A DNA stretch of 64,000 bases from a virus. Of the stretch, positions 31,589 to 62,136 are shown piece after piece. The stretch is taken from IMG/VR virus record IMGVR_UViG_3300045988_166055, positions 32,001 through 96,000 of that record, one strand, 5' to 3'. The notes under the pieces are model-generated. The model made no database searches and was not told where the DNA came from. It saw only the letters and a program-made list of their open reading frames with translations. Positions within the stretch are counted from its first letter, which is position 1; each line of letters begins with the position of its first letter. A program made the position numbers and the translations under genes.

Positions 31589-32125
31589 ATGTCTAACGGA
31601 TTTTCTGTTTATCCTTGCAGATGTGGTCGTATTCATATGATTAGTTGGGGCCTTGTCGATGAGGCTTGCGAAAAGAATATGGATATCATCCATATTTGTC
31701 AGCGATGCGGAAGAATGATTAGGATTGGTGGAGATTCGTTCTATGACGAATACGAAAAAGTATACGGATACTCTGTATACTCGTATGACATGACTTTGAA
31801 TGATCATGTAGTAAACATTGATCCGTCTTCTGACTATTCCAGCGAATGCAAACCTATTCTGAAAATCATTTCCGAGCCCGGAATTTGCATACCTATGGAG
31901 ACAGGCGGATATGCAACCGAATACTTCTCCGGAATTTTTAGAGATGGAACTAGGCCTTATTTCAGTCGAAAGGATCCGAATGAAACTTACGAAGATTTCA
32001 TCCGAAAGTGGGACATTGATGCCTCAACTGTCAACATGAATCTTTTGAAGAGATTGAATGATAAAGAAAAGTTAGACTACATCAAGAAACATATTCGTTT
32101 TGATCAGTTCGACTGGAGTAAGTGA
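31589..32125 (+). CDS. hypothetical protein with N-terminal zinc ribbon
   Basis: 178-aa ORF using the SD in repeat copy 2. Contains 'CRCGRIH...CQRCGRM'. Confidence 0.65.
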   Translation: MSNGFSVYPCRCGRIHMISWGLVDEACEKNMDIIHICQRCGRMIRIGGDSFYDEYEKVYGYSVYSYDMTLNDHVVNIDPSSDYSSECKPILKIISEPGICIPMETGGYATEYFSGIFRDGTRPYFSRKDPNETYEDFIRKWDIDASTVNMNLLKRLNDKEKLDYIKKHIRFDQFDWSK

Positions 32126-52977: not shown

Positions 52978-53355
52978 TTGAAGAAGGTAATACATGCTGC
53001 TGAAGAAGAATACAGTCAGATTCTATTTACTCCTTCATCTCTAGTTGATTTCTTAACTCAAGTAGACGAGCTTAAAGATGTCAACATAGGCGTAAATGAT
53101 GACGGAGAAAATGTTTCAATCTCTATCGGGGATTCAACATATCAAATAAATCCTAAGTCAGTTACAAATATTGATGTATCTGATGATGATCTAGATCAAG
53201 CTTGTCAAGCGAACGAAAGTAATTATGACGAGCTTGAAGAGTCAGGTTCAATTGAAGTGAATGATTCAGTTGAATCGGGAATCATAAAACAGCTATTAAA
53301 GACCTTAGCAATAGGCGGAATAGTACGTTTAGCTGCTAAGGAATTGAAAAATTGA
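52978..53355 (+). CDS. acidic protein with amphipathic basic C-terminus
   Basis: TTG 52978 lies 8 nt after AAGGAG; the track GTG 52969 abuts the SD. It is D/E-rich and ends with 'ESGIIKQLLKTLAIGGIVRLAAKELKN'. Confidence 0.5.
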   Translation: MKKVIHAAEEEYSQILFTPSSLVDFLTQVDELKDVNIGVNDDGENVSISIGDSTYQINPKSVTNIDVSDDDLDQACQANESNYDELEESGSIEVNDSVESGIIKQLLKTLAIGGIVRLAAKELKN

Positions 53356-53366
53356 GGTATTGGAAT

Positions 53367-54752
53367 ATGAAAGATACTAGAAAGAAGATTGTATCTGATA
53401 TAGAATCAGAAAAGCCCAAGAACCCTGTCATTGGAATATTTGAAGGTGAGTGTGCTGATTCAAACATAACAAATGAGAATGGACTAGATATAACTAGACC
53501 TGTATGGGAAAACATATTTAGTTCTGAATCGTATCAGCAAGCTATTGAACTTGGATGGTACATAGGATTCCTAGGACATCCCGATGATCCTGGATGTATG
53601 GACTTCCGAAATGCTTGTATTGTAATGACAGAAGGACATATAGATGATAACGGAAAAGTATATGGTAAATTTAATCTGATTGATACTCCTGTTGGTAGGA
53701 CAGTTAAAACATTCATAGACGCAGGTGTAACATTCGGAATTTCTGTAAGAGGCGCAGGGGACATTGTAAACAATTCTGTTGATCCTGATACATTTGTATT
53801 TAGAGGATTTGACCTTGTATCGTTTCCTGCGTTTCCTGAAAGCATCCCTACTTTTACATCGATTGCAGCTTCTAGCGATGTAGAGTCCCAGAAGAAGTAT
53901 AAAGCAATTTGTGCAGCAGTTAAAGAGAATCTACCTAACATTGATAGCTGCGAAGCTATTGATATTCTACAGTGTCAGTTTGCTGAACAGTCTGATGAAT
54001 ATAAAGCTTTAGAAGACAGAAAGAAAGAAATAAAAGGATGTAATTTAACTGACGATGATTTAAGTGAATGCGATGATGTAGACATTACAAAAGATAAAGT
54101 AGAGTCAATGACAAAACTTTATCTAGAACAGGTAGAAGCAAACAATCATCTGAAGAAAGAAAATCAAATTCTTTCAAGTAAATTAGCTTCAAACGAAATT
54201 GAAGCAAGACGAAAGATTTCTTCTATTAGTAGAATAACAGCAGATCAGATAAAATGTGCAACAGATGCAAAGGATGCTGCAGAGAAAAGATGCAAGCAAT
54301 TAGTTGCAGCGTCAATCAGAATGAAAGAGACGATTTCGCAAGAAAGATCAAACAACCTTAAATATCTACAGAAGATAAGCGAAAGCAAGAATATTGTTGA
54401 TTCTAAGGATTCTTTAATTTCTTCTCTAAAAACCAGACTCAATGAAACCGTCAATGCTTCTGCTAATGTAGAGAGAAGAACTTCAAACCTTGACGAACAG
54501 TTAAAGCGATCCAAGGCTGAAATAGTAGCTTGCAAAAAGATGCTTAAAGATTATCAGGATGCTTATGCAGAACTGTATTCGCAAGCAGTTGGAGCTGATC
54601 TTCAGAAGGTTAAAGTAACTGAATCAACAAGTGTAGCTTCACTTCGTTCTGCTATTACAAGCTCAATAAGTAGAAAACCATCCTCTATTAGAGAGCCTGA
54701 AGAAATTGATGTAGATGATTGTTACTTTGACGATGACATGGTAACTATTTAA
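53367..54752 (+). CDS. prohead protease (HK97/S78-like) fused to a coiled-coil scaffolding region
   Basis: GAGGT RBS before ATG 53367. 'IGFLGHPDD' (His) and 'GVTFGISVRGAG' (Ser) are spaced as in S78/U35 proteases. The C-terminal ~230 aa are heptad-rich. Located directly upstream of the capsid gene. Confidence 0.5.
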   Translation: MKDTRKKIVSDIESEKPKNPVIGIFEGECADSNITNENGLDITRPVWENIFSSESYQQAIELGWYIGFLGHPDDPGCMDFRNACIVMTEGHIDDNGKVYGKFNLIDTPVGRTVKTFIDAGVTFGISVRGAGDIVNNSVDPDTFVFRGFDLVSFPAFPESIPTFTSIAASSDVESQKKYKAICAAVKENLPNIDSCEAIDILQCQFAEQSDEYKALEDRKKEIKGCNLTDDDLSECDDVDITKDKVESMTKLYLEQVEANNHLKKENQILSSKLASNEIEARRKISSISRITADQIKCATDAKDAAEKRCKQLVAASIRMKETISQERSNNLKYLQKISESKNIVDSKDSLISSLKTRLNETVNASANVERRTSNLDEQLKRSKAEIVACKKMLKDYQDAYAELYSQAVGADLQKVKVTESTSVASLRSAITSSISRKPSSIREPEEIDVDDCYFDDDMVTI

Positions 54753-54783: not shown

Positions 54784-56151
54784 ATGATCACTAAGCGTTC
54801 CACTGCTCCTGCCCGCAGACCTGTCACTGCCGGTCAGAGCATTACTTCTGGCGTTCGTAATCGTAACGCTTCCGCTATTAAGTCCTCAGTAAATCTTACT
54901 CCGTCACAGAGAATGTTCGCTAATCAGATCGCTCGTAACTGTAGAAAGCCTGGCGCTATCATGGCAGCTACAAATACATCAAACATCATGGCTCGTCCCG
55001 ACTTCCTGGACCTGCTGCCTGTGTTTGTTCAGAAGCTGATTGTAACTGACATCTTCGGTTCCGTTGCGATGCGTTCTCGTCAGCAGCTGGTTCCTTACTT
55101 CAAGTTCATTGCTGAGAACACTAAGGGAGAGACCAAGTCTGGTACCGTTATGTCTTCTCCGTTTGCTAACCGCCAGGGCGTTGATCCTAACTTTACTGGT
55201 CGGGTAGTAAAGAACGAAGAGGTTGACGGTCAGCTGATGTATACTCCTGTTCTGCCTGGCACTGTTACCATTAAGAGCGCTCAGGGAGTATTCGTTGATA
55301 AGGGTGACGGCAAGCTGTACAAAGCCGATACTCAGGAAGAATCAGGAACCATTGATTATGCTACCGGCGAGATTGGCACCCTGACAGGTGACATGACTGC
55401 TACCTACCAGTACGACAATGAGACTGTTGGTCCTGACACCAATGGCCAGTACGGTGCTAAGATGGGTAAGGGTTACCTGCAGCTTGATGAGTTCAATCTG
55501 GTCGCTGAGGCCAAGGAGCTCGCTTGCTACTGGAGTATCTATTCTGCATTTGCTGCTCAGCAAGAATATGGTTCCAACATCGCTGACATGGCCAAGGAGG
55601 CCGCTGTTGGTGAGATCACTGCTGAAATCAACACCTCTTGCCTGGATATGCTGATGCAAGCAGCTTCTTACAAGCCTGCTTTCAACTGGGATGCTTCTCC
55701 TGTTCTGTCTGGTGCAGTTGTTCCTTCTGATTACCTGAACATGTTCAAGCTGAAGCTGGGTCAGGCTGCTGCTTCTATCTACCAGCAGACTCGCATGACT
55801 CGCCCGAACCGTCTAGTGGTAGGTACTACCGCAGCTGAGTACATCGGCATGATCAACGGCTTCAAGGGTGACAACATCGATGACACTGTTGGTCCTTACA
55901 AGTTCGGTACTCTTGACCAGTTCGAGATATATGTCAATCCTTCTTACGATCCTGATTCTTGGGTCATGTGCTGCAAGAGTAACGACATTAGAAAGAACAC
56001 GGCTCTGTTCGGCGAGTATATGCCTATCACCAACACTGATGTGGTTGGTCTGGCTAACATGTCCGCGCAGCAAGGCTATGCCACAATGTACGCAAGCAAG
56101 GTCGTCAACCCTGCCACTTGCGTGAAGGGCAAGATCCTAGGCACTTTCTAA
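54784..56151 (+). CDS. major capsid protein
   Basis: 455 aa with a TAGGAGAG RBS, after the protease-scaffold. It has markedly GC-rich codon usage and is followed by the strongest terminator in the window. Confidence 0.7.
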   Translation: MITKRSTAPARRPVTAGQSITSGVRNRNASAIKSSVNLTPSQRMFANQIARNCRKPGAIMAATNTSNIMARPDFLDLLPVFVQKLIVTDIFGSVAMRSRQQLVPYFKFIAENTKGETKSGTVMSSPFANRQGVDPNFTGRVVKNEEVDGQLMYTPVLPGTVTIKSAQGVFVDKGDGKLYKADTQEESGTIDYATGEIGTLTGDMTATYQYDNETVGPDTNGQYGAKMGKGYLQLDEFNLVAEAKELACYWSIYSAFAAQQEYGSNIADMAKEAAVGEITAEINTSCLDMLMQAASYKPAFNWDASPVLSGAVVPSDYLNMFKLKLGQAAASIYQQTRMTRPNRLVVGTTAAEYIGMINGFKGDNIDDTVGPYKFGTLDQFEIYVNPSYDPDSWVMCCKSNDIRKNTALFGEYMPITNTDVVGLANMSAQQGYATMYASKVVNPATCVKGKILGTF

Positions 56152-56277: not shown

Positions 56278-58092
56278 ATGGGTGGACACATAAAGGTGCC
56301 GGATAATGTGTTTAGAAAATGCGAAATTTGCGGAGATACATTTCATCCTAATACATATAGACAAAGAACATGTGGAAAGCCAAAGACAAAAACTTGTCCC
56401 GTTTGCGGAAAACAATTTGAATATTCATGCAAACCCGATTATATTAAAACCACTTGTTCAAGGAAATGCGCGGATATACTTGCTAAGAAAGTTAGAAACG
56501 ACAATTCGGAAAAGCTAACTAGAAAATGTGCATATTGTGGAAAAGAATTTACGCCTAAGACAAAAAAAGATATTTATTGTAGTGGCCCACACTACAAGAA
56601 TTGTGAAGTATGCGGAAAAGAATTCGAGTTTGATGTAAGAGGATATTCTAACATAAAGACTTGTTCTAAAGAATGTAGATATAAATTATCATCTAGAAAC
56701 AAAGACATTGAATCTATGATTCGGAATCATAAGAAAACAATGACTGAAAAGTACGGTGTTGATCAACCTATGCACATTCCTGGAGTAATAGAAAAGATCA
56801 AGGAAACAAATCGAGAAAGGTACGGATCAGATTGGTATACGCAAACTTCGGAATACAAGAAATCAGTTGAAGAAACTTCATTATCCAGATATGGAGTAAA
56901 ACATTTTCTTTCAAGCGAAGATGTTAAGAATAAAAGAAGAGATACATGTAAAGAAAAATATGGATTCAGCAACTATGCTTTTCTTATGGTTGATCACCCT
57001 GAAAAACTTGAAAAATGGATTGAATTCAGAAAAGACGGAAAGAAGTACATATCAGAGAACTATTCAGAAAAGCCTACTAGAAATCAGCTATCAGAAGATT
57101 TAGGAGTATCATATTCTACTATTTCTCAAGAAATACGACTGAAGGGCTTAGATGATTATGTAATGTGTAATGTATCTTACATGGAAGACGAAATAGTAGA
57201 CGAGCTGAGGAAACTGATTCCTGATGTTCAAATCATTCGAAGATGTAAGAATTTAATAACACCGTATGAATTAGATATTTATCTACCTGAATATGAAGTT
57301 GCAATAGAATGCAATCCAACTTATACGCATAATTCGTCTACAAGTAGTTTCACAAATAAACCAAAGCCTATTAGATACCATCAAATGAAAACAGAAATGT
57401 GCGAAAGAAAAGGTGTATTTCTTTTTCATGTATTTGGTTATGAATGGTACAGCAGAAAAGAAATCCTACTTAGTATGATAGGTAATCTTTTAAGATGTAA
57501 TAGAAATAGGGTATATGCTCGAAAATGCAAACTAATTGATGTTTCGTCTAATGAATCTAGATCATTCCTAGAATGTAATCATAGACAAGGAGAAGCGTCA
57601 GCATCAATTAAGCTAGGACTAACTTACAATGACGAGTTAGTTAGTTTGATGACATTTGGAAAGCTAAGAGGAACAATTGGCACAGATAAATCGGATACAT
57701 CTAATTGCTGGGAATTAGTACGGTTTTGTTCTAAGTTAGGCACAAATGTTGTTGGTGGCGCAAGCAAGCTATTCAAATACTTTGTTGATAATTACAATCC
57801 AGAAGAAATAAGATCATTTTCAGATAGGGCTCATACAAAGGGAAATTTGTACTATAAATTAGGATTCCATGAATTGCGAAGATCTGACCCCGGGTATGTT
57901 TGGGTTGAACTTGCTACAGATAATCCTGTTAATAGAGTAACTGTACAGAAATCAAATATAAAATCCTTTCTTCATGATGATTCAATTGACCTTTCTCTTA
58001 GTGAATCGGAAATAATGATTCAACACGGTTTCGTAAAGGTATTTGATTCAGGCACAATAACATGGCAGTTGAATAAACAAAAATCGTTATAA
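56278..58092 (+). CDS. multidomain homing-endonuclease-like protein (4 FCS-type zinc ribbons + YG(V) repeats + PD-(D/E)xK/Vsr-like core + C-terminal domain)
   Basis: Four 'CxxCGxxF...(T/Y)CS..C' units lie in aa 16-135. 'EKYGVDQP', 'RERYGSDWY', 'LSRYGVKHF' and 'KEKYGFSN' are repeats. 'PYELDIYLPEYEVAIECNPTYTHNS' resembles the Vsr/DUF559-type endonuclease core. The C-terminus is paralogous to 17922..18578(-). Confidence 0.6.
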   Translation: MGGHIKVPDNVFRKCEICGDTFHPNTYRQRTCGKPKTKTCPVCGKQFEYSCKPDYIKTTCSRKCADILAKKVRNDNSEKLTRKCAYCGKEFTPKTKKDIYCSGPHYKNCEVCGKEFEFDVRGYSNIKTCSKECRYKLSSRNKDIESMIRNHKKTMTEKYGVDQPMHIPGVIEKIKETNRERYGSDWYTQTSEYKKSVEETSLSRYGVKHFLSSEDVKNKRRDTCKEKYGFSNYAFLMVDHPEKLEKWIEFRKDGKKYISENYSEKPTRNQLSEDLGVSYSTISQEIRLKGLDDYVMCNVSYMEDEIVDELRKLIPDVQIIRRCKNLITPYELDIYLPEYEVAIECNPTYTHNSSTSSFTNKPKPIRYHQMKTEMCERKGVFLFHVFGYEWYSRKEILLSMIGNLLRCNRNRVYARKCKLIDVSSNESRSFLECNHRQGEASASIKLGLTYNDELVSLMTFGKLRGTIGTDKSDTSNCWELVRFCSKLGTNVVGGASKLFKYFVDNYNPEEIRSFSDRAHTKGNLYYKLGFHELRRSDPGYVWVELATDNPVNRVTVQKSNIKSFLHDDSIDLSLSESEIMIQHGFVKVFDSGTITWQLNKQKSL

Positions 58093-58104
58093 TAATTGTA
58101 GATA
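58082..58104 (+). promoter_or_regulatory. Motif A copy (AATCGTTAT-N6-TGTAGATA)
   Basis: Full bipartite motif containing TATAAT and overlapping the stop codon of the upstream gene. It lies 41 nt upstream of ATG 58145. Confidence 0.45.
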
Positions 58105-58144
58105 GAAATGACTTATCAAAATTTATCGAAAGGAACAAAGTTTT

Positions 58145-59032
58145 ATGACAAGAGAAGAACAACTTTCTACTATTAAGCAGCTTCGTGATCTTACAGCAGA
58201 TCTTGAATGGCAGCAGGATACACTTGATGAACTTGAATGGAGCAGCTACGATCCTCCTGTAAAGCCTGTTTTGAAAACATATACCAAGCCTGCATACCCT
58301 GAGCCAGAGTCTTCCATGAGGTTCAACTGGAAGGTTTTCAACTACTTTTGGGCTATTACAGCTCTTATTTTTCTTGGCATCTGTAAGCTGTTTGATACAC
58401 CTATTTTTCTGCTTCTTCACGTAGCTATTACCATTGGATACGTCATGAAGTATCGTGAAATGAAAAAGGCTGATGTTGAGAAAGTTAGAAACTCTGCTGA
58501 ATTCAAAGCTAAGTTGAAGCAAATTGATGATGACTACGACAGTCTGGTTTATGCAGCTAAAGCGAAATACGAAAAGGATATGGATGAATGGAAGAATGAT
58601 TTGATGCCTAGATACGAGATCGACAAGGTCAAGTACGAAGCAAAGAAACGTGAAGATATTGCTAACTGCAAAGCCGCTATCACTCATGACAAGCGAGAAA
58701 TTTCTCGTATTTATGGTGAGACTAAAATCCTTCCTACTGCTTACAGGTCTCTTCCTATTCTAGAATACATTGAAGAATTCATGGCTTCTTCTAACTTCGA
58801 TGTAAATCGAGCAATTGAGAACTACGACAGAGAACAGCAGAGATGCATTGATGAAAAGAGGTTCCAGCAGGAGGTTTATTACAATCAGCTTCAGGAGCAA
58901 ATGGTTGATGCTCAGGAAAGAGCAAACAGCATTGCAGATAGAGCTAGACGCGATGCTAACAGAGCAGATTTTGTTGCAGCTGTTCAGCGTCATAACACTA
59001 ATAAGCATTTGAAGAGGATGGCTGAGAAGTAA
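58145..59032 (+). CDS. membrane-anchored coiled-coil protein
   Basis: 295 aa. The hydrophobic stretch 'VFNYFWAITALIFLGICKLFDTPIFLLLHVAITIGYVM' is followed by a long charged helical region. Confidence 0.65.
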   Translation: MTREEQLSTIKQLRDLTADLEWQQDTLDELEWSSYDPPVKPVLKTYTKPAYPEPESSMRFNWKVFNYFWAITALIFLGICKLFDTPIFLLLHVAITIGYVMKYREMKKADVEKVRNSAEFKAKLKQIDDDYDSLVYAAKAKYEKDMDEWKNDLMPRYEIDKVKYEAKKREDIANCKAAITHDKREISRIYGETKILPTAYRSLPILEYIEEFMASSNFDVNRAIENYDREQQRCIDEKRFQQEVYYNQLQEQMVDAQERANSIADRARRDANRADFVAAVQRHNTNKHLKRMAEK

Positions 59033-59033
59033 T

Positions 59034-59426
59034 ATGAAGAGAGAGAAAGGTGTAAGACATTATTGGGAGATTACTCTTGGCACAGAGACATTTCAAGAAA
59101 AATACAAAGGTGGAGTTTTATGGTACTTGAAACACGATTTTAGGGTACCTCCTCTGCATCCTACACTTCATAACTCATCTTTGGAATCATGGCTGAATGA
59201 CATCAAAGATGGAAATGCAGAAAATGTACCAGATTGGCTTATAGAAAATGTCAAATTCGTAGAAAGTAAATCGTTCAAATGCGATGATTGTGGGAAGATT
59301 GTTTATGAACCAAATCAAGCAATCATCATTCCGGGATACACATTACATTTCTGCTCATATAAGTGTGCTTGCGATTATGGCTTAGGTTGTTACAGACTTT
59401 CTGTTCAAGATGCACTTGATCTTTGA
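59034..59426 (+). CDS. hypothetical protein with C-terminal FCS-type zinc ribbon
   Basis: Contains 'CDDCGKIVYEPNQAIIIPGYTLHFCSYKCA'. Confidence 0.6.
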   Translation: MKREKGVRHYWEITLGTETFQEKYKGGVLWYLKHDFRVPPLHPTLHNSSLESWLNDIKDGNAENVPDWLIENVKFVESKSFKCDDCGKIVYEPNQAIIIPGYTLHFCSYKCACDYGLGCYRLSVQDALDL

Positions 59427-59430
59427 TAAG

Positions 59431-59439
59431 AATCGTTAT
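59431..59439 (+). promoter_or_regulatory. Motif A copy (AATCGTTAT)
   Basis: Exact 9-mer, intergenic, 47 nt upstream of ATG 59486. Confidence 0.4.
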
Positions 59440-59485
59440 ATTAAGTATCTAACATATCAAAACTTGAATACTAGAGGCTACTAAC

Positions 59486-60052
59486 ATGACAATTGCTTAC
59501 TTTGAAGGAAAGAAATACACTACCTGCAAAGATTTAAGAAAAGCTGTATTTGAATGGTGTATTGAAAAAGACATTATTCTTCCTAGCGGATCCTCTATAG
59601 TAAATCTTTGGAAACACTGGAAGATAACAAACAAATATATAGATGTTTTGTCTAGAATTGATATTGTAGATGATAGAGGTGAATTTAGACCCGATAGAAT
59701 TAGATATGTCATTGATGACAAATTCTTTGACAACACAAGCTCGCTGTATCGATATATTGATTTCTATCACAGAAGAGACATTGAGCGTGTTCGAGAAGAG
59801 AACATCAATATGTATCTTTTCAATTCTAGATTTGATACAAGCAAAATGAATTTGAAGAACAAGGTTAAAGTAGTATTTCTTCCTAAAATTTATTGCCCTA
59901 AATGTCATAGAAAGATTTTCCTTGGTGAAAATGTATTTCACACAGATAAAATGTCTAACTATTGTTCGTATGACTGTTTACCTGAAGGTGAAAGATATAT
60001 TCAGAGAATATTAAGAATGGAGGATTTGCTCTATGCCCCAGCGGTCGTATGA
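59486..60052 (+). CDS. hypothetical protein with C-terminal FCS-type zinc ribbon
   Basis: Contains 'CPKCHRKIFLGENVFHTDKMSNYCSYDCL'. Confidence 0.6.
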   Translation: MTIAYFEGKKYTTCKDLRKAVFEWCIEKDIILPSGSSIVNLWKHWKITNKYIDVLSRIDIVDDRGEFRPDRIRYVIDDKFFDNTSSLYRYIDFYHRRDIERVREENINMYLFNSRFDTSKMNLKNKVKVVFLPKIYCPKCHRKIFLGENVFHTDKMSNYCSYDCLPEGERYIQRILRMEDLLYAPAVV

Positions 60053-60218
60053 ATATAAAGGTGTAACAATCTATCTTTATTACTATGGGTGTTTTCTTTT
60101 CTACGCTGAAAAGAATAAATATGGGCTAAAGCACGGACGGTGGAAATGGATTAGTTTTTGCAATACAGATGAAGCGGAACAATTCATAGACAAGCATATA
60201 GATACTTTCTGTTGGTGA
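60033..60218 (+). CDS. hypothetical protein
   Basis: 61-aa ORF with a GGAGGA RBS. Confidence 0.5.
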   Translation: MPQRSYEYKGVTIYLYYYGCFLFYAEKNKYGLKHGRWKWISFCNTDEAEQFIDKHIDTFCW

Positions 60219-60227: not shown

Positions 60228-60321
60228 TTTTATGTGATAGGCGGGAGATACTATATCTTTCGTTGTATGATGAAGTTAATAAAAAACAAAGATCACATAA
60301 ATCATTTTGGAGGTTATCTAA

Positions 60322-60726
60322 ATGAGTTACAAGATTACTATTAAGTTCACCAAGCCTGTTAAGGTTGAAGCATCTATTCCTACTTATCCAATTGCCCCTG
60401 AATTTGTTCTGGGTCAGTCTTATGTGGATGAGAAGGCTTTCCGTGACCAGGCAGGCGATACCGCTTATTCCAAGAACATTTGGGAGAAGGGTGAGTTCCT
60501 GATGGCTCAGGACCTGTCTGAGTTCCTAGGTGAAGTTTCTGTCCATCCTGGTGTTGTTCTTGCTTGCAAGTCCGCTATTCTGGCTGCTGAGGCTGCCGAA
60601 GCTTCTTCTGGTGAGAATGCTGGTTATGAGTTCATAACTGATGACTACAAAGACAAGATGCTGTACGAAGAGATCGGTCGTGCTCTTGCCGGTCAGGGAT
60701 TCGAGGTAACTGTCGACCCTACGTAA
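60322..60726 (+). CDS. small, probably abundant structural protein
   Basis: 134 aa with a GGAGGT RBS. GC-rich codon usage like the capsid and tube genes. Confidence 0.65.
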   Translation: MSYKITIKFTKPVKVEASIPTYPIAPEFVLGQSYVDEKAFRDQAGDTAYSKNIWEKGEFLMAQDLSEFLGEVSVHPGVVLACKSAILAAEAAEASSGENAGYEFITDDYKDKMLYEEIGRALAGQGFEVTVDPT

Positions 60727-61403
60727 AGGGTCAGGTTGATATTTCAGCTTCTGACGGAGAGGATGCTATCCAGAAAGCCATTTCAGCTAATCCGTCAGGA
60801 GCTTATATCAAGCTGGCCCAGAATGTCTACCAAGGTGGCATTCAGGCAGAAGCTGGATCAAACATCACTATTGATCTAAATGGACATGAGCTAAAATGCG
60901 TGCCTCCATTTGTCGGATCTGATAGTAGCTATTCAAACGGATTGAGATTCATGAAGGGTTCAAAAGTTCTAATTAAGAACGGAACTGTCAAAACATCTTC
61001 TCCGGAGTTAGCTATTCTTATTCAGAACTTCGCAGACGAGTTGATTCTAGATAATGTAACATTGTCTGGAAAGCTTTCTACTCAGTACATTCTATCAAAT
61101 AACTTCGGAAATGTTGTTATGAAGAATGGAACTACTGTAAAAGCATCTGGTGGTCATGTAGCATTTGATGCTCATTACGGCTTATCTCCTGAATATGACG
61201 ATGGTGTTACAGTAAATATTGCGGATGACACTGTTAAGATAATTGGACTTGTAGAATATACTAAGCAGGAAGGAAAGTCAGATGAAGATTTCCTATCAAG
61301 GACACATATCTACATACCTGTTGGATATGACCTTACTGCTCCAGAGGGATACAAGTTCCAGTTAACAGAAGATAAAACAAGACAAGAACTAGTTAAAGCG
61401 TGA
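60726..61403 (+). CDS. beta-helix-like ORF without its own start codon, in the -1 frame relative to 60322..60726
   Basis: The frame is open from 60645. Hand translation from 60720 gives YVKGQVDISASDGEDAIQKAISANPSGAYIKLAQNVYQGGIQAEAGSNITIDLNGHELKCVPPFVG..., continuous with track ORF 60900..61403. No ATG, GTG or TTG occurs in frame before 60900. Confidence 0.5.
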   Translation, partial: KGQVDISASDGEDAIQKAISANPSGAYIKLAQNVYQGGIQAEAGSNITIDLNGHELKCVPPFVGSDSSYSNGLRFMKGSKVLIKNGTVKTSSPELAILIQNFADELILDNVTLSGKLSTQYILSNNFGNVVMKNGTTVKASGGHVAFDAHYGLSPEYDDGVTVNIADDTVKIIGLVEYTKQEGKSDEDFLSRTHIYIPVGYDLTAPEGYKFQLTEDKTRQELVKA

Positions 61404-61425: not shown

Positions 61426-62136
61426 ATGACTATGGATGAAGTAACTGCTCAAGTTGGATTCTTACTAGGCTTTCCTACTAACGAGAATGTAGAAGAGGTT
61501 GATCTAAGGCAAGCAGTATTGATTGCATTTAGAGAACTAAAAAGATACATTCGTCAGTCAGTGGAAAAGACTGTCCCGTTTCAAACTAGAATAGACTTGC
61601 TCAAGCAAGATATCCATACAAACAAAGTTCTCAATGTTCAAGCTGCCTATCCTAGAATAGGCCTTACAATGAGTAACATAGACAGTGGTAATGTTTTCCA
61701 GGTTGCTGCCGCTGTAAACGCCTATAGTACGATAGGCAACACAAGTTCAATCAACATAGATCCTATAATGTCTGAACTTGCAATGGCTCAAGTCCGTAAC
61801 ACAATTTCTACTGATTTTCAATGGAAATATGATCCGTATAATCAAGTAGTTTATGTTACGCACAGAGATCCATTACCTGCAATGGTAACTATACGATATG
61901 TTCCAGATTTGCAGGATGTATCAGAGATTCAAGGAACAACCTGGATTGACTACTTAGTCCGGATGAGCCTAGCATTCGCAAAAATATCGTTAGGCAGATC
62001 TCGGTCAAAATATACAATTGAGGGCTCTAATGTAACACTTGACGGTGATACACTTCTTCAAGAAGCTAACGCAGAGTTAGAAGCTATAAGAGGTGAACTT
62101 GAGCCTAAGAAAAGTAGACTTGTTGTTTTGAACTAA
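61426..62136 (+). CDS. hypothetical (probably structural) protein
   Basis: 236-aa ORF with a GAGGAGG RBS. Confidence 0.65.
   Translation: MTMDEVTAQVGFLLGFPTNENVEEVDLRQAVLIAFRELKRYIRQSVEKTVPFQTRIDLLKQDIHTNKVLNVQAAYPRIGLTMSNIDSGNVFQVAAAVNAYSTIGNTSSINIDPIMSELAMAQVRNTISTDFQWKYDPYNQVVYVTHRDPLPAMVTIRYVPDLQDVSEIQGTTWIDYLVRMSLAFAKISLGRSRSKYTIEGSNVTLDGDTLLQEANAELEAIRGELEPKKSRLVVLN

Follow-up and report, generated by a model that had tools for sequence, protein, structure and literature searches.

We examined the 3' end of a small gene, gene A, and the reading frame that overlaps and follows it, B, in a 64,000-nucleotide stretch of virus DNA (positions 32,001 to 96,000 of IMG/VR record IMGVR_UViG_3300045988_166055; this whole stretch is called the window, and positions are counted from its first letter). 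All features described here lie on the plus strand. Gene A (60322..60726) begins with the ATG at 60322, with a Shine-Dalgarno (SD) sequence, GGAGG, read directly from the sequence 8 nucleotides ahead of it (60309..60313), and this open reading frame (ORF) encodes a product of 134 residues that ends in ...GFEVTVDPT before the TAA at 60724-60726. The frame at -1 relative to A, which is frame 0 of the window, is open from 60645 to 61403 and encodes ...CRPYVKGQVDISASDGEDAIQKAISANPSGAYIKLAQ...; its translation across the stop codon of A is ...CRPYVKGQVDISASDGEDAIQKAISANPSGAYIKLAQNVYQGG.... No ATG, GTG or TTG occurs in this frame across 60645..60899, and the canonical starts that follow are, in order, GTG 60900, TTG 60942 and ATG 60951, the last being the first ATG. 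An earlier reading of this DNA from its letters alone (the sequence-only reading) had described the same gene A, ribosome-binding site, stop codon and open frame, and the same first canonical start at GTG 60900; its ATG at 60948 was misplaced by three bases and belongs at 60951. B, as we define it, is the extension of 227 codons in the -1 frame from the tyrosine codon at 60720 to the TGA at 61401-61403 (60720..61403), and its translation resembles a beta-helix module. We consider it likely, from sequence comparisons, that gene A carries a programmed -1 ribosomal frameshift cassette at its 3' end. The predicted transframe protein A-B (60322..61403) would have 360 residues, namely residues 1-133 of A followed by YVKGQVDI..., with ...GFEVTVDP joined to YVKGQVDISASDG... 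at the junction.

The composition of the two parts differs. The GC content at third codon positions (GC3) is 0.44 in gene A, 0.55 in the major capsid gene and about 0.30 in neighbouring, ordinary genes, and that of B is 0.31. As had been remarked from the sequence, the codon usage of A tends towards that of the capsid gene, and B is like the ordinary genes. A drop in GC3 from A to B is what would be expected if B were read by few ribosomes. Public annotations name B a hypothetical protein of 150 residues that begins at the first ATG (60951..61403; A0A8S5UCI6, P0001, P0005; P numbers denote proteins and L numbers loci), while other gene calls of 191-209 residues begin at an internal TTG, GTG or ATG, and all of these are N-terminally truncated. 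The 150-residue calls omit about 76 residues (60720-60950) as well as the link to gene A, and the same annotation error will recur throughout this group of 75-160 kb uncultured gut phages.

We compared the locus with seven IMG/VR contigs of 75-148 kb and with further ENA, Logan and other assemblies. Over 20 independently assembled contigs (IMG/VR, ENA, Logan) keep the two-frame layout, the stop codon and the offset between the frames without insertions or deletions, so that the conservation in related phages that the sequence-only reading had suggested looking for is borne out by the alignments. Across the relatives, the segment 60600..60960 contained no insertion or deletion at all and retained the TAA, and the frame offset of B held in lineages down to 44% identity. 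Gene A homologues at 62-96% identity were all 127-135 residues long, showing that the stop has been retained. In a set of 10 sequences (three clades plus L045), the 57 codons downstream of the stop of A contained no stop codon in frame 0, compared with 31 and 52 in the other two frames. Variable columns after the stop fell at codon positions 1, 2 and 3 of frame 0 in the numbers 34, 18 and 51, and the periodicity of variable sites changed at the stop, from third positions of the frame of A before it to third positions of the -1 frame after it. The ratio of nonsynonymous to synonymous substitution rates (dN/dS; Nei-Gojobori) for 60729..60899 in frame 0 was 0.07 against L007 and 0.13 against L016, close to the 0.10-0.12 of the remainder of B, and exceeded 2 in the other two frames. 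Judged by these substitution patterns, about 57 codons are shown here to be translated even though they have no canonical start of their own.

These results also bear on the simplest alternative, an assembly or sequencing indel, under which a single true ORF would cover both A and B, or else B would be an unexpressed, decaying remnant. An error of one base would give exactly such a picture in a single contig, and a single ORF does exist in one relative (P0027, described below). The offset is, however, shared by contigs from different samples and assemblers and by lineages of low identity, and a B with dN/dS of about 0.1 and no stop codons is not decaying. Purifying selection, the lack of stops and the conserved offset together exclude error and remnant for practical purposes, and we regard this explanation as extremely improbable. 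Two internal codons were rejected as the true start of B, GTG 60900 and ATG 60951: the 57 codons upstream are selected like the rest of B, and the GTG is not conserved in relatives (GTA in L002, GTC in L007).

How ribosomes could arrive in the frame of B is indicated by the relatives. In clades II and III (including L016, L018, L023 and L024), where A is 65-71% identical to that of the window, the -1 frame opens just 22 nucleotides before the stop of A and the first canonical start for B lies 87-216 nucleotides downstream. This short overlap confines any shift there to the equivalent of window positions 60705..60731. Seven more distant loci, with B 44-64% identical to that of the window, keep the -1 layout and carry a canonical slippery heptamer immediately ahead of the stop of A. 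The heptamer is A_AAA_AAA in L042 (ACA AAA AAA TAG), in L043 and L056 (ACA AAA AAA GCA/TCA TAG/TAA) and in L063 (GTA AAA AAA GCC TAA), A_AAA_AAC in L045 (GTA AAA AAC GCA TAA) and L058 (TCA AAA AAC GCG TAA), and G_GGA_AAC in L044 (GAG GGA AAC TAG). One codon separates heptamer and stop in five of the seven (L043, L045, L056, L058, L063), the same arrangement as in the window, and the stop follows directly in L042 and L044. The -1 overlaps in these loci span 16-76 nucleotides, and in six of the seven the first canonical start of B is found 39-150 nucleotides downstream, within the conserved domain. One of the heptamer loci, L063 (CAVKXW010000001.1, 141,940 nucleotides), is binned as a 'Bacteroidaceae bacterium' metagenome-assembled genome (MAG); its size matches that of the phage genomes, and it is probably a phage genome that was mis-binned.

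A further arrangement was found in P0027, a protein of 339 residues encoded after a holin gene on a 2-kb Logan contig, in which A and B are fused in frame with the junction ...FEVEVLPYSD.... A BLASTP comparison of the hypothetical window fusion with P0027 gave one alignment over residues 67-351 (E 1e-48), ungapped at the junction, where GFEVTVDPYVKGQV of the window fusion stands opposite GFEVEVLPYSDMKF of P0027, matching as ...V-x-P-Y.... The sequence-only reading had proposed that ribosomes reach B from A by a -1 shift just before the stop, so that a sub-stoichiometric A-B fusion would result, comparable to T7 10A/10B or to Ig domains added by frameshifting. That proposal is strengthened by the conserved layout, by purifying selection on the start-less segment, by the canonical heptamers at the homologous position in seven loci and by this in-frame fusion; it gains further from a conserved 3' hairpin at canonical spacing, which the earlier reading had not seen.

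This predicted stimulatory hairpin comprises 92 nucleotides (60728..60819), with a basal helix (60728-60742/60805-60819), a second helix (60746-60758/60791-60803) and an apical part (60759-60790). It starts 3 nucleotides past the stop and 7 nucleotides past CCU 60718-60720; the 7-nucleotide spacer, ACGUAAA (60721..60727), contains the zero-frame TAA at 60724-60726. We folded the RNA of 60710-60830 with 200 shuffled sequences as the control. The minimum free energy was -48.5 kcal/mol against -29.3 +/- 3.4 for the shuffles (z -5.7), none of which was as stable. The same hairpin in the same register was predicted in clades I-III and in L045, where it has z -8.7 to -9.0 and the same 7-nucleotide spacing. 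The other lineages with heptamers also have stable hairpins, at 6-9 nucleotides in L044, L058 and L042 and at 18-19 nucleotides in L043 and L056.

Covariation was assessed in an alignment, A4, of 21 sequences (17 distinct), in which 85% of cells pair, compared with 24-48% when the structure was slid by 1-3 columns, and in which both sides change at 8 pairs, values that none of 500 column shuffles reached; these numbers are inflated somewhat, since the structure came from the window sequence itself and its arms double as coding sequence for the conserved peptides KGQVDI and YIKLAQ. The pair 60729/60818 is U-A in L007, an exactly compensated change whose 5'-arm side is nonsynonymous in B (Gly to Cys), and the pair 60734/60813 is A-U in six distinct sequences. 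Less regular cases were also seen. L006 has changes at 60730 and 60818, with Gly to Asp in B, and its pairing is restored only via a bulge, giving a weaker hairpin (z -3.2), while L001 and L003 have one uncompensated mismatch each.

Two smaller structures were noted near the hairpin. GACCC 60715-60719 can pair with GGGUC 60728-60732 to form a small alternative hairpin that encloses the stop, with weaker versions in clades II and III (CCCC with GGGG, CCCU with AGGG); the pairing may be coincidental, or it may act as a switch in competition with the base of the large hairpin. A short local hairpin of GUCAG with CUGAC is just part of the larger structure. Searches of Rfam returned only chance-level matches, and a promoter and terminator scan found nothing specific near the cassette.

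The hairpin is relevant to the possibility that B is a separate protein, initiated at a non-canonical ATT at 60741 (behind AAGGG or CAGGU) or by re-initiation after TAA 60724. ATT 60741 is invariant in clades I-III and has purine-rich AAGGG or AGGGG about 10 nucleotides upstream, and B apparently has its own start in a remote lineage (L060; P0035). The ATT and the SD-like bases, however, lie within the two basal helices of the stable hairpin. Outside clades I-III the codon is ATA in L045 and is missing in L042-L044, L056 and L058, all of which have canonical -1 heptamers instead. Variation in the residues directly behind the stop (Lys/Arg, Gly/Asp/Cys) is what might be expected of a non-coding spacer, but the variable bases co-vary with their pairing partners and so appear to be constrained as RNA. 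Moreover, the peptide KGQ(V/I)DI encoded ahead of the ATT has been retained in L045, its QVDI forms the first strand of the B model, and the in-frame fusion P0027 aligns through this segment. Independent initiation is therefore very unlikely to account for B in the window.

Within a frameshift reading, the position of the slip can be approached from the alignment. In A4 the A_AAA_AAC of L045 occupies the same columns (10-16) as C_GAC_CCU of the window (60714..60720), and both stand 7 nucleotides before the same hairpin. The usable motif at this site is a Z_ZZN tetramer, C_CCU (60717-60720): CCU to CCC would be a cognate re-pairing of tRNA-Pro, and GAC is unable to re-pair in the -1 frame. The sequence CCYUAYGUAA is conserved in clades I-III except in the variant L059, and UAYGUAA, which includes the stop, is invariant there. 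C/U differences occur at two positions: at 60719 they are synonymous in the -1 frame (CCC/CCU, Pro) and exchange Pro for Leu (CCU/CUU) in the zero frame, and at 60722 they are again synonymous in the -1 frame (UAC/UAU, Tyr) and exchange Thr for Met (ACG/AUG) in the zero frame. Both fit translation as Pro-Tyr in the -1 frame, and P0027 likewise has Pro-Tyr at its junction.

The sequence-only reading had found no X_XXY_YYZ heptamer in the overlap and had named two sites compatible with re-pairing, G_GGA (60696-60699) and C_CCU (60717-60720), and all of this was confirmed as placed. Of these two sites C_CCU fits the geometry, and G_GGA was rejected: GGA 60697-60699 is GGC in all seven close relatives, and the equivalent site in clades II and III has a TGA of the -1 frame just downstream of it, the frame opening only in the last 22 nucleotides before the stop. 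Transcriptional slippage was rejected because the longest homopolymer in the overlap is CCC. Bypassing, or hopping, was likewise rejected, since the matching ACG or AUG landing codons downstream, worked out by hand, resume in the wrong frame. An SD-like GAGGU (60703..60707) lies 9 nucleotides upstream of C_CCU in clade I only and is absent from clades II and III and from L045. SD-like elements upstream of a slip site are known as stimulators of -1 shifting (Sharma et al., 2014; PMC4066793), and by speculative analogy GAGGU may be an upstream stimulator.

The proposed sequence of events is as follows. Most ribosomes would make A and terminate at TAA 60724. While CCU 60718-60720 is being decoded, the base of the hairpin, 7 nucleotides downstream, would be at the mRNA entry site and resist unwinding, and in a minority of ribosomes tRNA-Pro would slip one base back at C_CCU, from CCU to CCC. 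These ribosomes would continue with UAC GUA AAG... in the -1 frame, pass the zero-frame stop and add the 227 residues of B to give the A-B protein, and the fraction of A copies bearing B would be set by the frameshift. The tryptic junction peptide expected from a slip at C_CCU is ...ALAGQGFEVTVDPYVK. We infer that the efficiency of the shift is low. Placement of the slip exactly at C_CCU is favoured, though by less than is the cassette as a whole.

Several observations weigh against this interpretation. The overlap in the window has C_GAC_CCU where distant relatives have canonical heptamers. Since GAC in the P site cannot re-pair with CGA, just a single tRNA is able to slip. In E. coli, Sharma et al. 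(2014; PMC4066793) measured all 16 tetramers and found six active with the IS3 pseudoknot, at only 0.26-5.6%, in the order A_AAG >> U_UUC > U_UUU > C_CCU = C_CCC > A_AAA; the heptamers A_AAA_AAC and G_GGA_AAC are also of low efficiency yet frequent in insertion sequence (IS) elements (PMC4066793). Three clade III variants lack the tetramer, with B and the hairpin intact: L018 and L037 have C_CUU (tcc ctt atg TAA) and L059 (1890..1902) has C_UCU (tcc tct atg TAA). The simple slip model fails to explain them, and no other Z_ZZN motif occurs within their 22-nucleotide overlaps; either re-pairing is inessential, or the slip occurs elsewhere (e.g., at U_UCC in clades II and III), or little A-B is made. 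The hairpin sits in conserved coding sequence, and part of its conservation reflects constraint on the protein. In L042, by exception to the other heptamer loci, a GTG overlaps the stop of A, and in the remote lineage of L060 and P0035 B appears to be a separate gene. Lastly, the virion role that we propose below for A is drawn from synteny, codon bias and fusion pattern, and A models poorly.

The tetramer-less variants are also the principal argument for -1 recoding at a site other than C_CCU, namely a P-site slip of tRNA-Ser on U_UCC (clades II and III), a shift with the stop in the A site (giving ...DPT-VKGQ), or a hairpin-driven shift with little re-pairing. Such a site would agree with the invariance of UAYGUAA through the stop and with the single codon that separates shift position and stop in five of the seven heptamer loci and in the window's clades. 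Against it, re-pairing in the -1 frame is impossible for GAC, ACG and AUG, the 7-nucleotide spacing puts CCU, not the stop, where the second codon of the L045 heptamer lies, and the C/U changes at 60719 and 60722, together with the Pro-Tyr of P0027, point to the -1 frame being read from CCU onwards. We consider a different site unlikely. A related proposal, which we hold to be rather doubtful, is that the shift evolved from an ancestral A_AAA_AAC into one that is stop-proximal and dominated by structure, with little or no tRNA re-pairing; it is suggested by the inability of GAC to re-pair, by the selection still acting on B in the C_CUU and C_UCU variants and by the invariant UAYGUAA. If true, the mechanism would differ from the standard slippery-motif rule. 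Whichever holds, a lineage in which the heptamer was lost, the tetramer was lost too in some variants and the hairpin was kept offers a testable case for the amount of re-pairing on which a bacterial -1 shift depends.

B is arranged differently again in a remote lineage. In L060 (5577..6810) it is apparently a gene of its own that overlaps the A-like gene at a +1 offset and starts separately, at a GTG with AAGGAG 4 nucleotides before it, and the B homologue P0035 starts with Met; B can thus work unfused to A. The sequence-only reading had held that an independent start for B in relatives would speak against a frameshift. Such a start does exist in this one lineage, and with its other frame arrangement it has no bearing on the lineages with the -1 layout. 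In L057 (1394..2702), from the same remote lineage, B is +1 relative to an A-like gene and overlaps its end, and the only nearby ATG is followed almost directly by a Pro/Gly/Glu-rich linker (DDPTPGPDPGPGPEPEPEPG). Such a linker makes more sense with B tethered to A, so that a +1 frameshift may occur in this locus. B is absent from L028, L040 and L041, in which A (42-43% identical to that of the window; 1498..1884 in L028) is directly followed by the gp13-like gene; compared with L028, A of L040 is ended prematurely by a TAA in place of GAG.

We then considered what the cassette encodes. The AlphaFold2 model of B, built with 67 homologues, is a confident all-beta stack (mean predicted local distance difference test score (pLDDT) 96.2, predicted template modelling score 0.92). 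The best matches that Foldseek gave for it in the PDB, all of them weak (E >=0.13, template modelling scores 0.35-0.44), belong without exception to right-handed beta-helix proteins, namely pectin methylesterase 8tne, the PL3 pectate lyase 4yzx, autotransporters and tailspikes. In BFVD the first match was the truncated public annotation A0A8S5UCI6 (150 residues, 94% identical), followed by weak matches, many of them to beta-helix or tail proteins. No close structural relative and no immunoglobulin (Ig)-like match was found in these searches. Sequence searches of PHROGs, Pfam and the PDB gave nothing above threshold, and no profile exceeded its curated threshold, the scores including NPCBM at 20.5 bits (cut-off 23.9) and, in P0046, Beta_helix at 13.4 bits. 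The suggestion from the sequence that B begins a beta-helix is consistent with the model and its weak matches, and B is probably a short right-handed beta-helix-like module.

Modules like B also occur outside the A-B arrangement. In L062 B keeps its place immediately ahead of the gp13-like gene but has other domains fused to its N-terminal side, and B-like modules are found inside large secreted or lipoprotein-like proteins of MAGs of Ruminococcaceae, Oscillospiraceae and other Clostridia (L064, L065, L066, L067, L069). These proteins include complete ORFs of 479-1100 residues and partial ones of at least 1640 and at least 1856 residues, some with N-termini like those of signal peptides or lipoproteins, and Pfam searches of them found no partner domains. 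B seems to be common to the phages and to surface proteins of their likely host bacteria. Given this occurrence in large secreted proteins of gut Clostridia, a cell-surface polymer is probably what B binds or cleaves. A particle that displays B may attach to a polymer of the host or the mucosa, and this could assist in finding the host of this uncultured phage group. A separate case is P0071 (386 residues, 4-kb ENA contig), in which one ORF encodes a Queuosine_synth (QueA) N-terminal domain followed by a B-like module; the fusion is an odd one, unless the assembly is chimeric.

The head and neck genes of the window are of T4 type, with a prohead protease-like gene at 53352..54752, a Gp23-family capsid gene whose ORF starts at 54784 (homology over about 54988..56148) and a gp13-like/Ad2 neck gene at 61426..62136. 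Relatives have the order T4 gp23-like major capsid gene, A, B (where present) and T4 gp13-like neck gene, with an inserted gene between capsid gene and A in some. The nearest cultured capsid genes, in myoviruses of Bacillus, Listeria and Streptococcus, are 26-28% identical, and the host is probably a gut Firmicute. A DNA similarity search against cultured phages found no match, and gp064 of Bacillus phage vB_BceM-HSE3, which is syntenic with A, has no similarity to it. The capsid ORF (54784..56151) starts about 68 codons upstream of the homology to the L028 capsid protein (about 54988); the extra codons could be an N-terminal propeptide, or the true start could be a later one. Its GC3 of 0.55 is far above the mean GC of the window, 0.37. 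Between capsid gene and A lie about 4 kb (56278..60218) with five ORFs, which encode, among others, small Cys-rich proteins and a zinc-ribbon protein of 604 residues with DUF7487. A follows the capsid gene directly in L028 and L044, and at the same spot L060 has a NUMOD4/HNH endonuclease and L043 a gene of 562 residues. The interval has the look of a hot spot at which mobile or accessory genes insert.

Gene A itself matched nothing above threshold in Pfam, PHROG or PDB sequence searches, and a profile search of 1.84 billion representative proteins found only 31 members of its family, nearly all of 112-157 residues. Two longer proteins, P0117 (223 residues) and P0136 (217 residues), have the A domain, an acidic linker and an in-frame C-terminal Big_2 Ig-like domain, which scored 23.8 bits in P0117 (cut-off 22.8) and 21.4, just under the cut-off, in P0136. 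By sequence comparison, Big_2 is an alternative cargo at the attachment point of B on A. In the model of the fusion, residues 13-80 of A have pLDDT below 50, too uncertain for a fold search, and a strand at 127-134 leads to the first strand of B at 138-141. Gene order, codon bias and the pattern of fusions make it most likely that A is a virion protein associated with the head or neck, abundant, exposed at the surface and with its C-terminus pointing outward.

One family of loci therefore shows B absent, as a separate gene, in the -1 frame behind three different canonical heptamers or a tetramer, and fused in frame, with Big_2 as an alternative cargo. Display modules have been suggested to end up in or out of frame by chance and then to be rescued by frameshifting, and this series provides a clean test of that idea in nature. 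Phage coat and tail proteins are known to gain C-terminal domains, often Ig-like, by -1 or +1 frameshifting, with T7 gene 10A/10B, the T3 coat protein, Lactobacillus phage A2 and Listeria phages A118, A500 and PSA as the reviewed cases (Atkins et al., 2016; PMC5009743). Relatives of these phages carry the same domains in frame; the review ascribes this to recombination that places modules in or out of frame, and speaks of 'indifference' to the arrangement (PMC5009743). The cassette in the window resembles them in that one gene would yield a major short and a minor longer product by a shift at its extreme 3' end, in that the added domain would be a surface module, and in that the module may be in frame (P0027), in the -1 frame (many loci), separately started (L060) or absent (L028). 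It differs from the Ig-like cases of the Fraser type, with domains of about 80-100 residues, in that the cargo is beta-helix-like and, at 227 residues, larger than its 134-residue carrier, although the extension of T7 is likewise not Ig-like (PMC5009743). The carrier also belongs to a small uncharacterised family encoded near the capsid gene, rather than being the major capsid or tail protein itself, and the shift motif of the window's clade is a tetramer plus a long hairpin.

The combination of C_CCU with a stable structure 7 nucleotides downstream is like the bacterial signals of Z_ZZN tetramer and 3' structure (PMC4066793), and the heptamers of the relatives (A_AAA_AAA, A_AAA_AAC, G_GGA_AAC) are among the commonest in IS elements (PMC4066793). 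Unlike the IS3 pseudoknot or the IS911 three-way junction, however, the stimulator here is a 92-nucleotide irregular hairpin within coding sequence, and the host is not E. coli, in which the reporter systems were studied (PMC4066793). In the lambda G/GT tail assembly chaperone, too, a small gene undergoes a conserved -1 shift close to its end, which fixes a low ratio of long to short product. The cassette is not between tail tube and tape measure genes, as G/GT is, but between the capsid region and the gp13-like neck gene, and there is no sequence similarity; a G/GT-type frameshift was rejected for its wrong location. Taken on its sequence features, this locus very likely adds an example to a strategy already described for T7, T3 and phages of Listeria, from which it differs in its beta-helix-like cargo, its uncharacterised carrier and its tetramer-type site.

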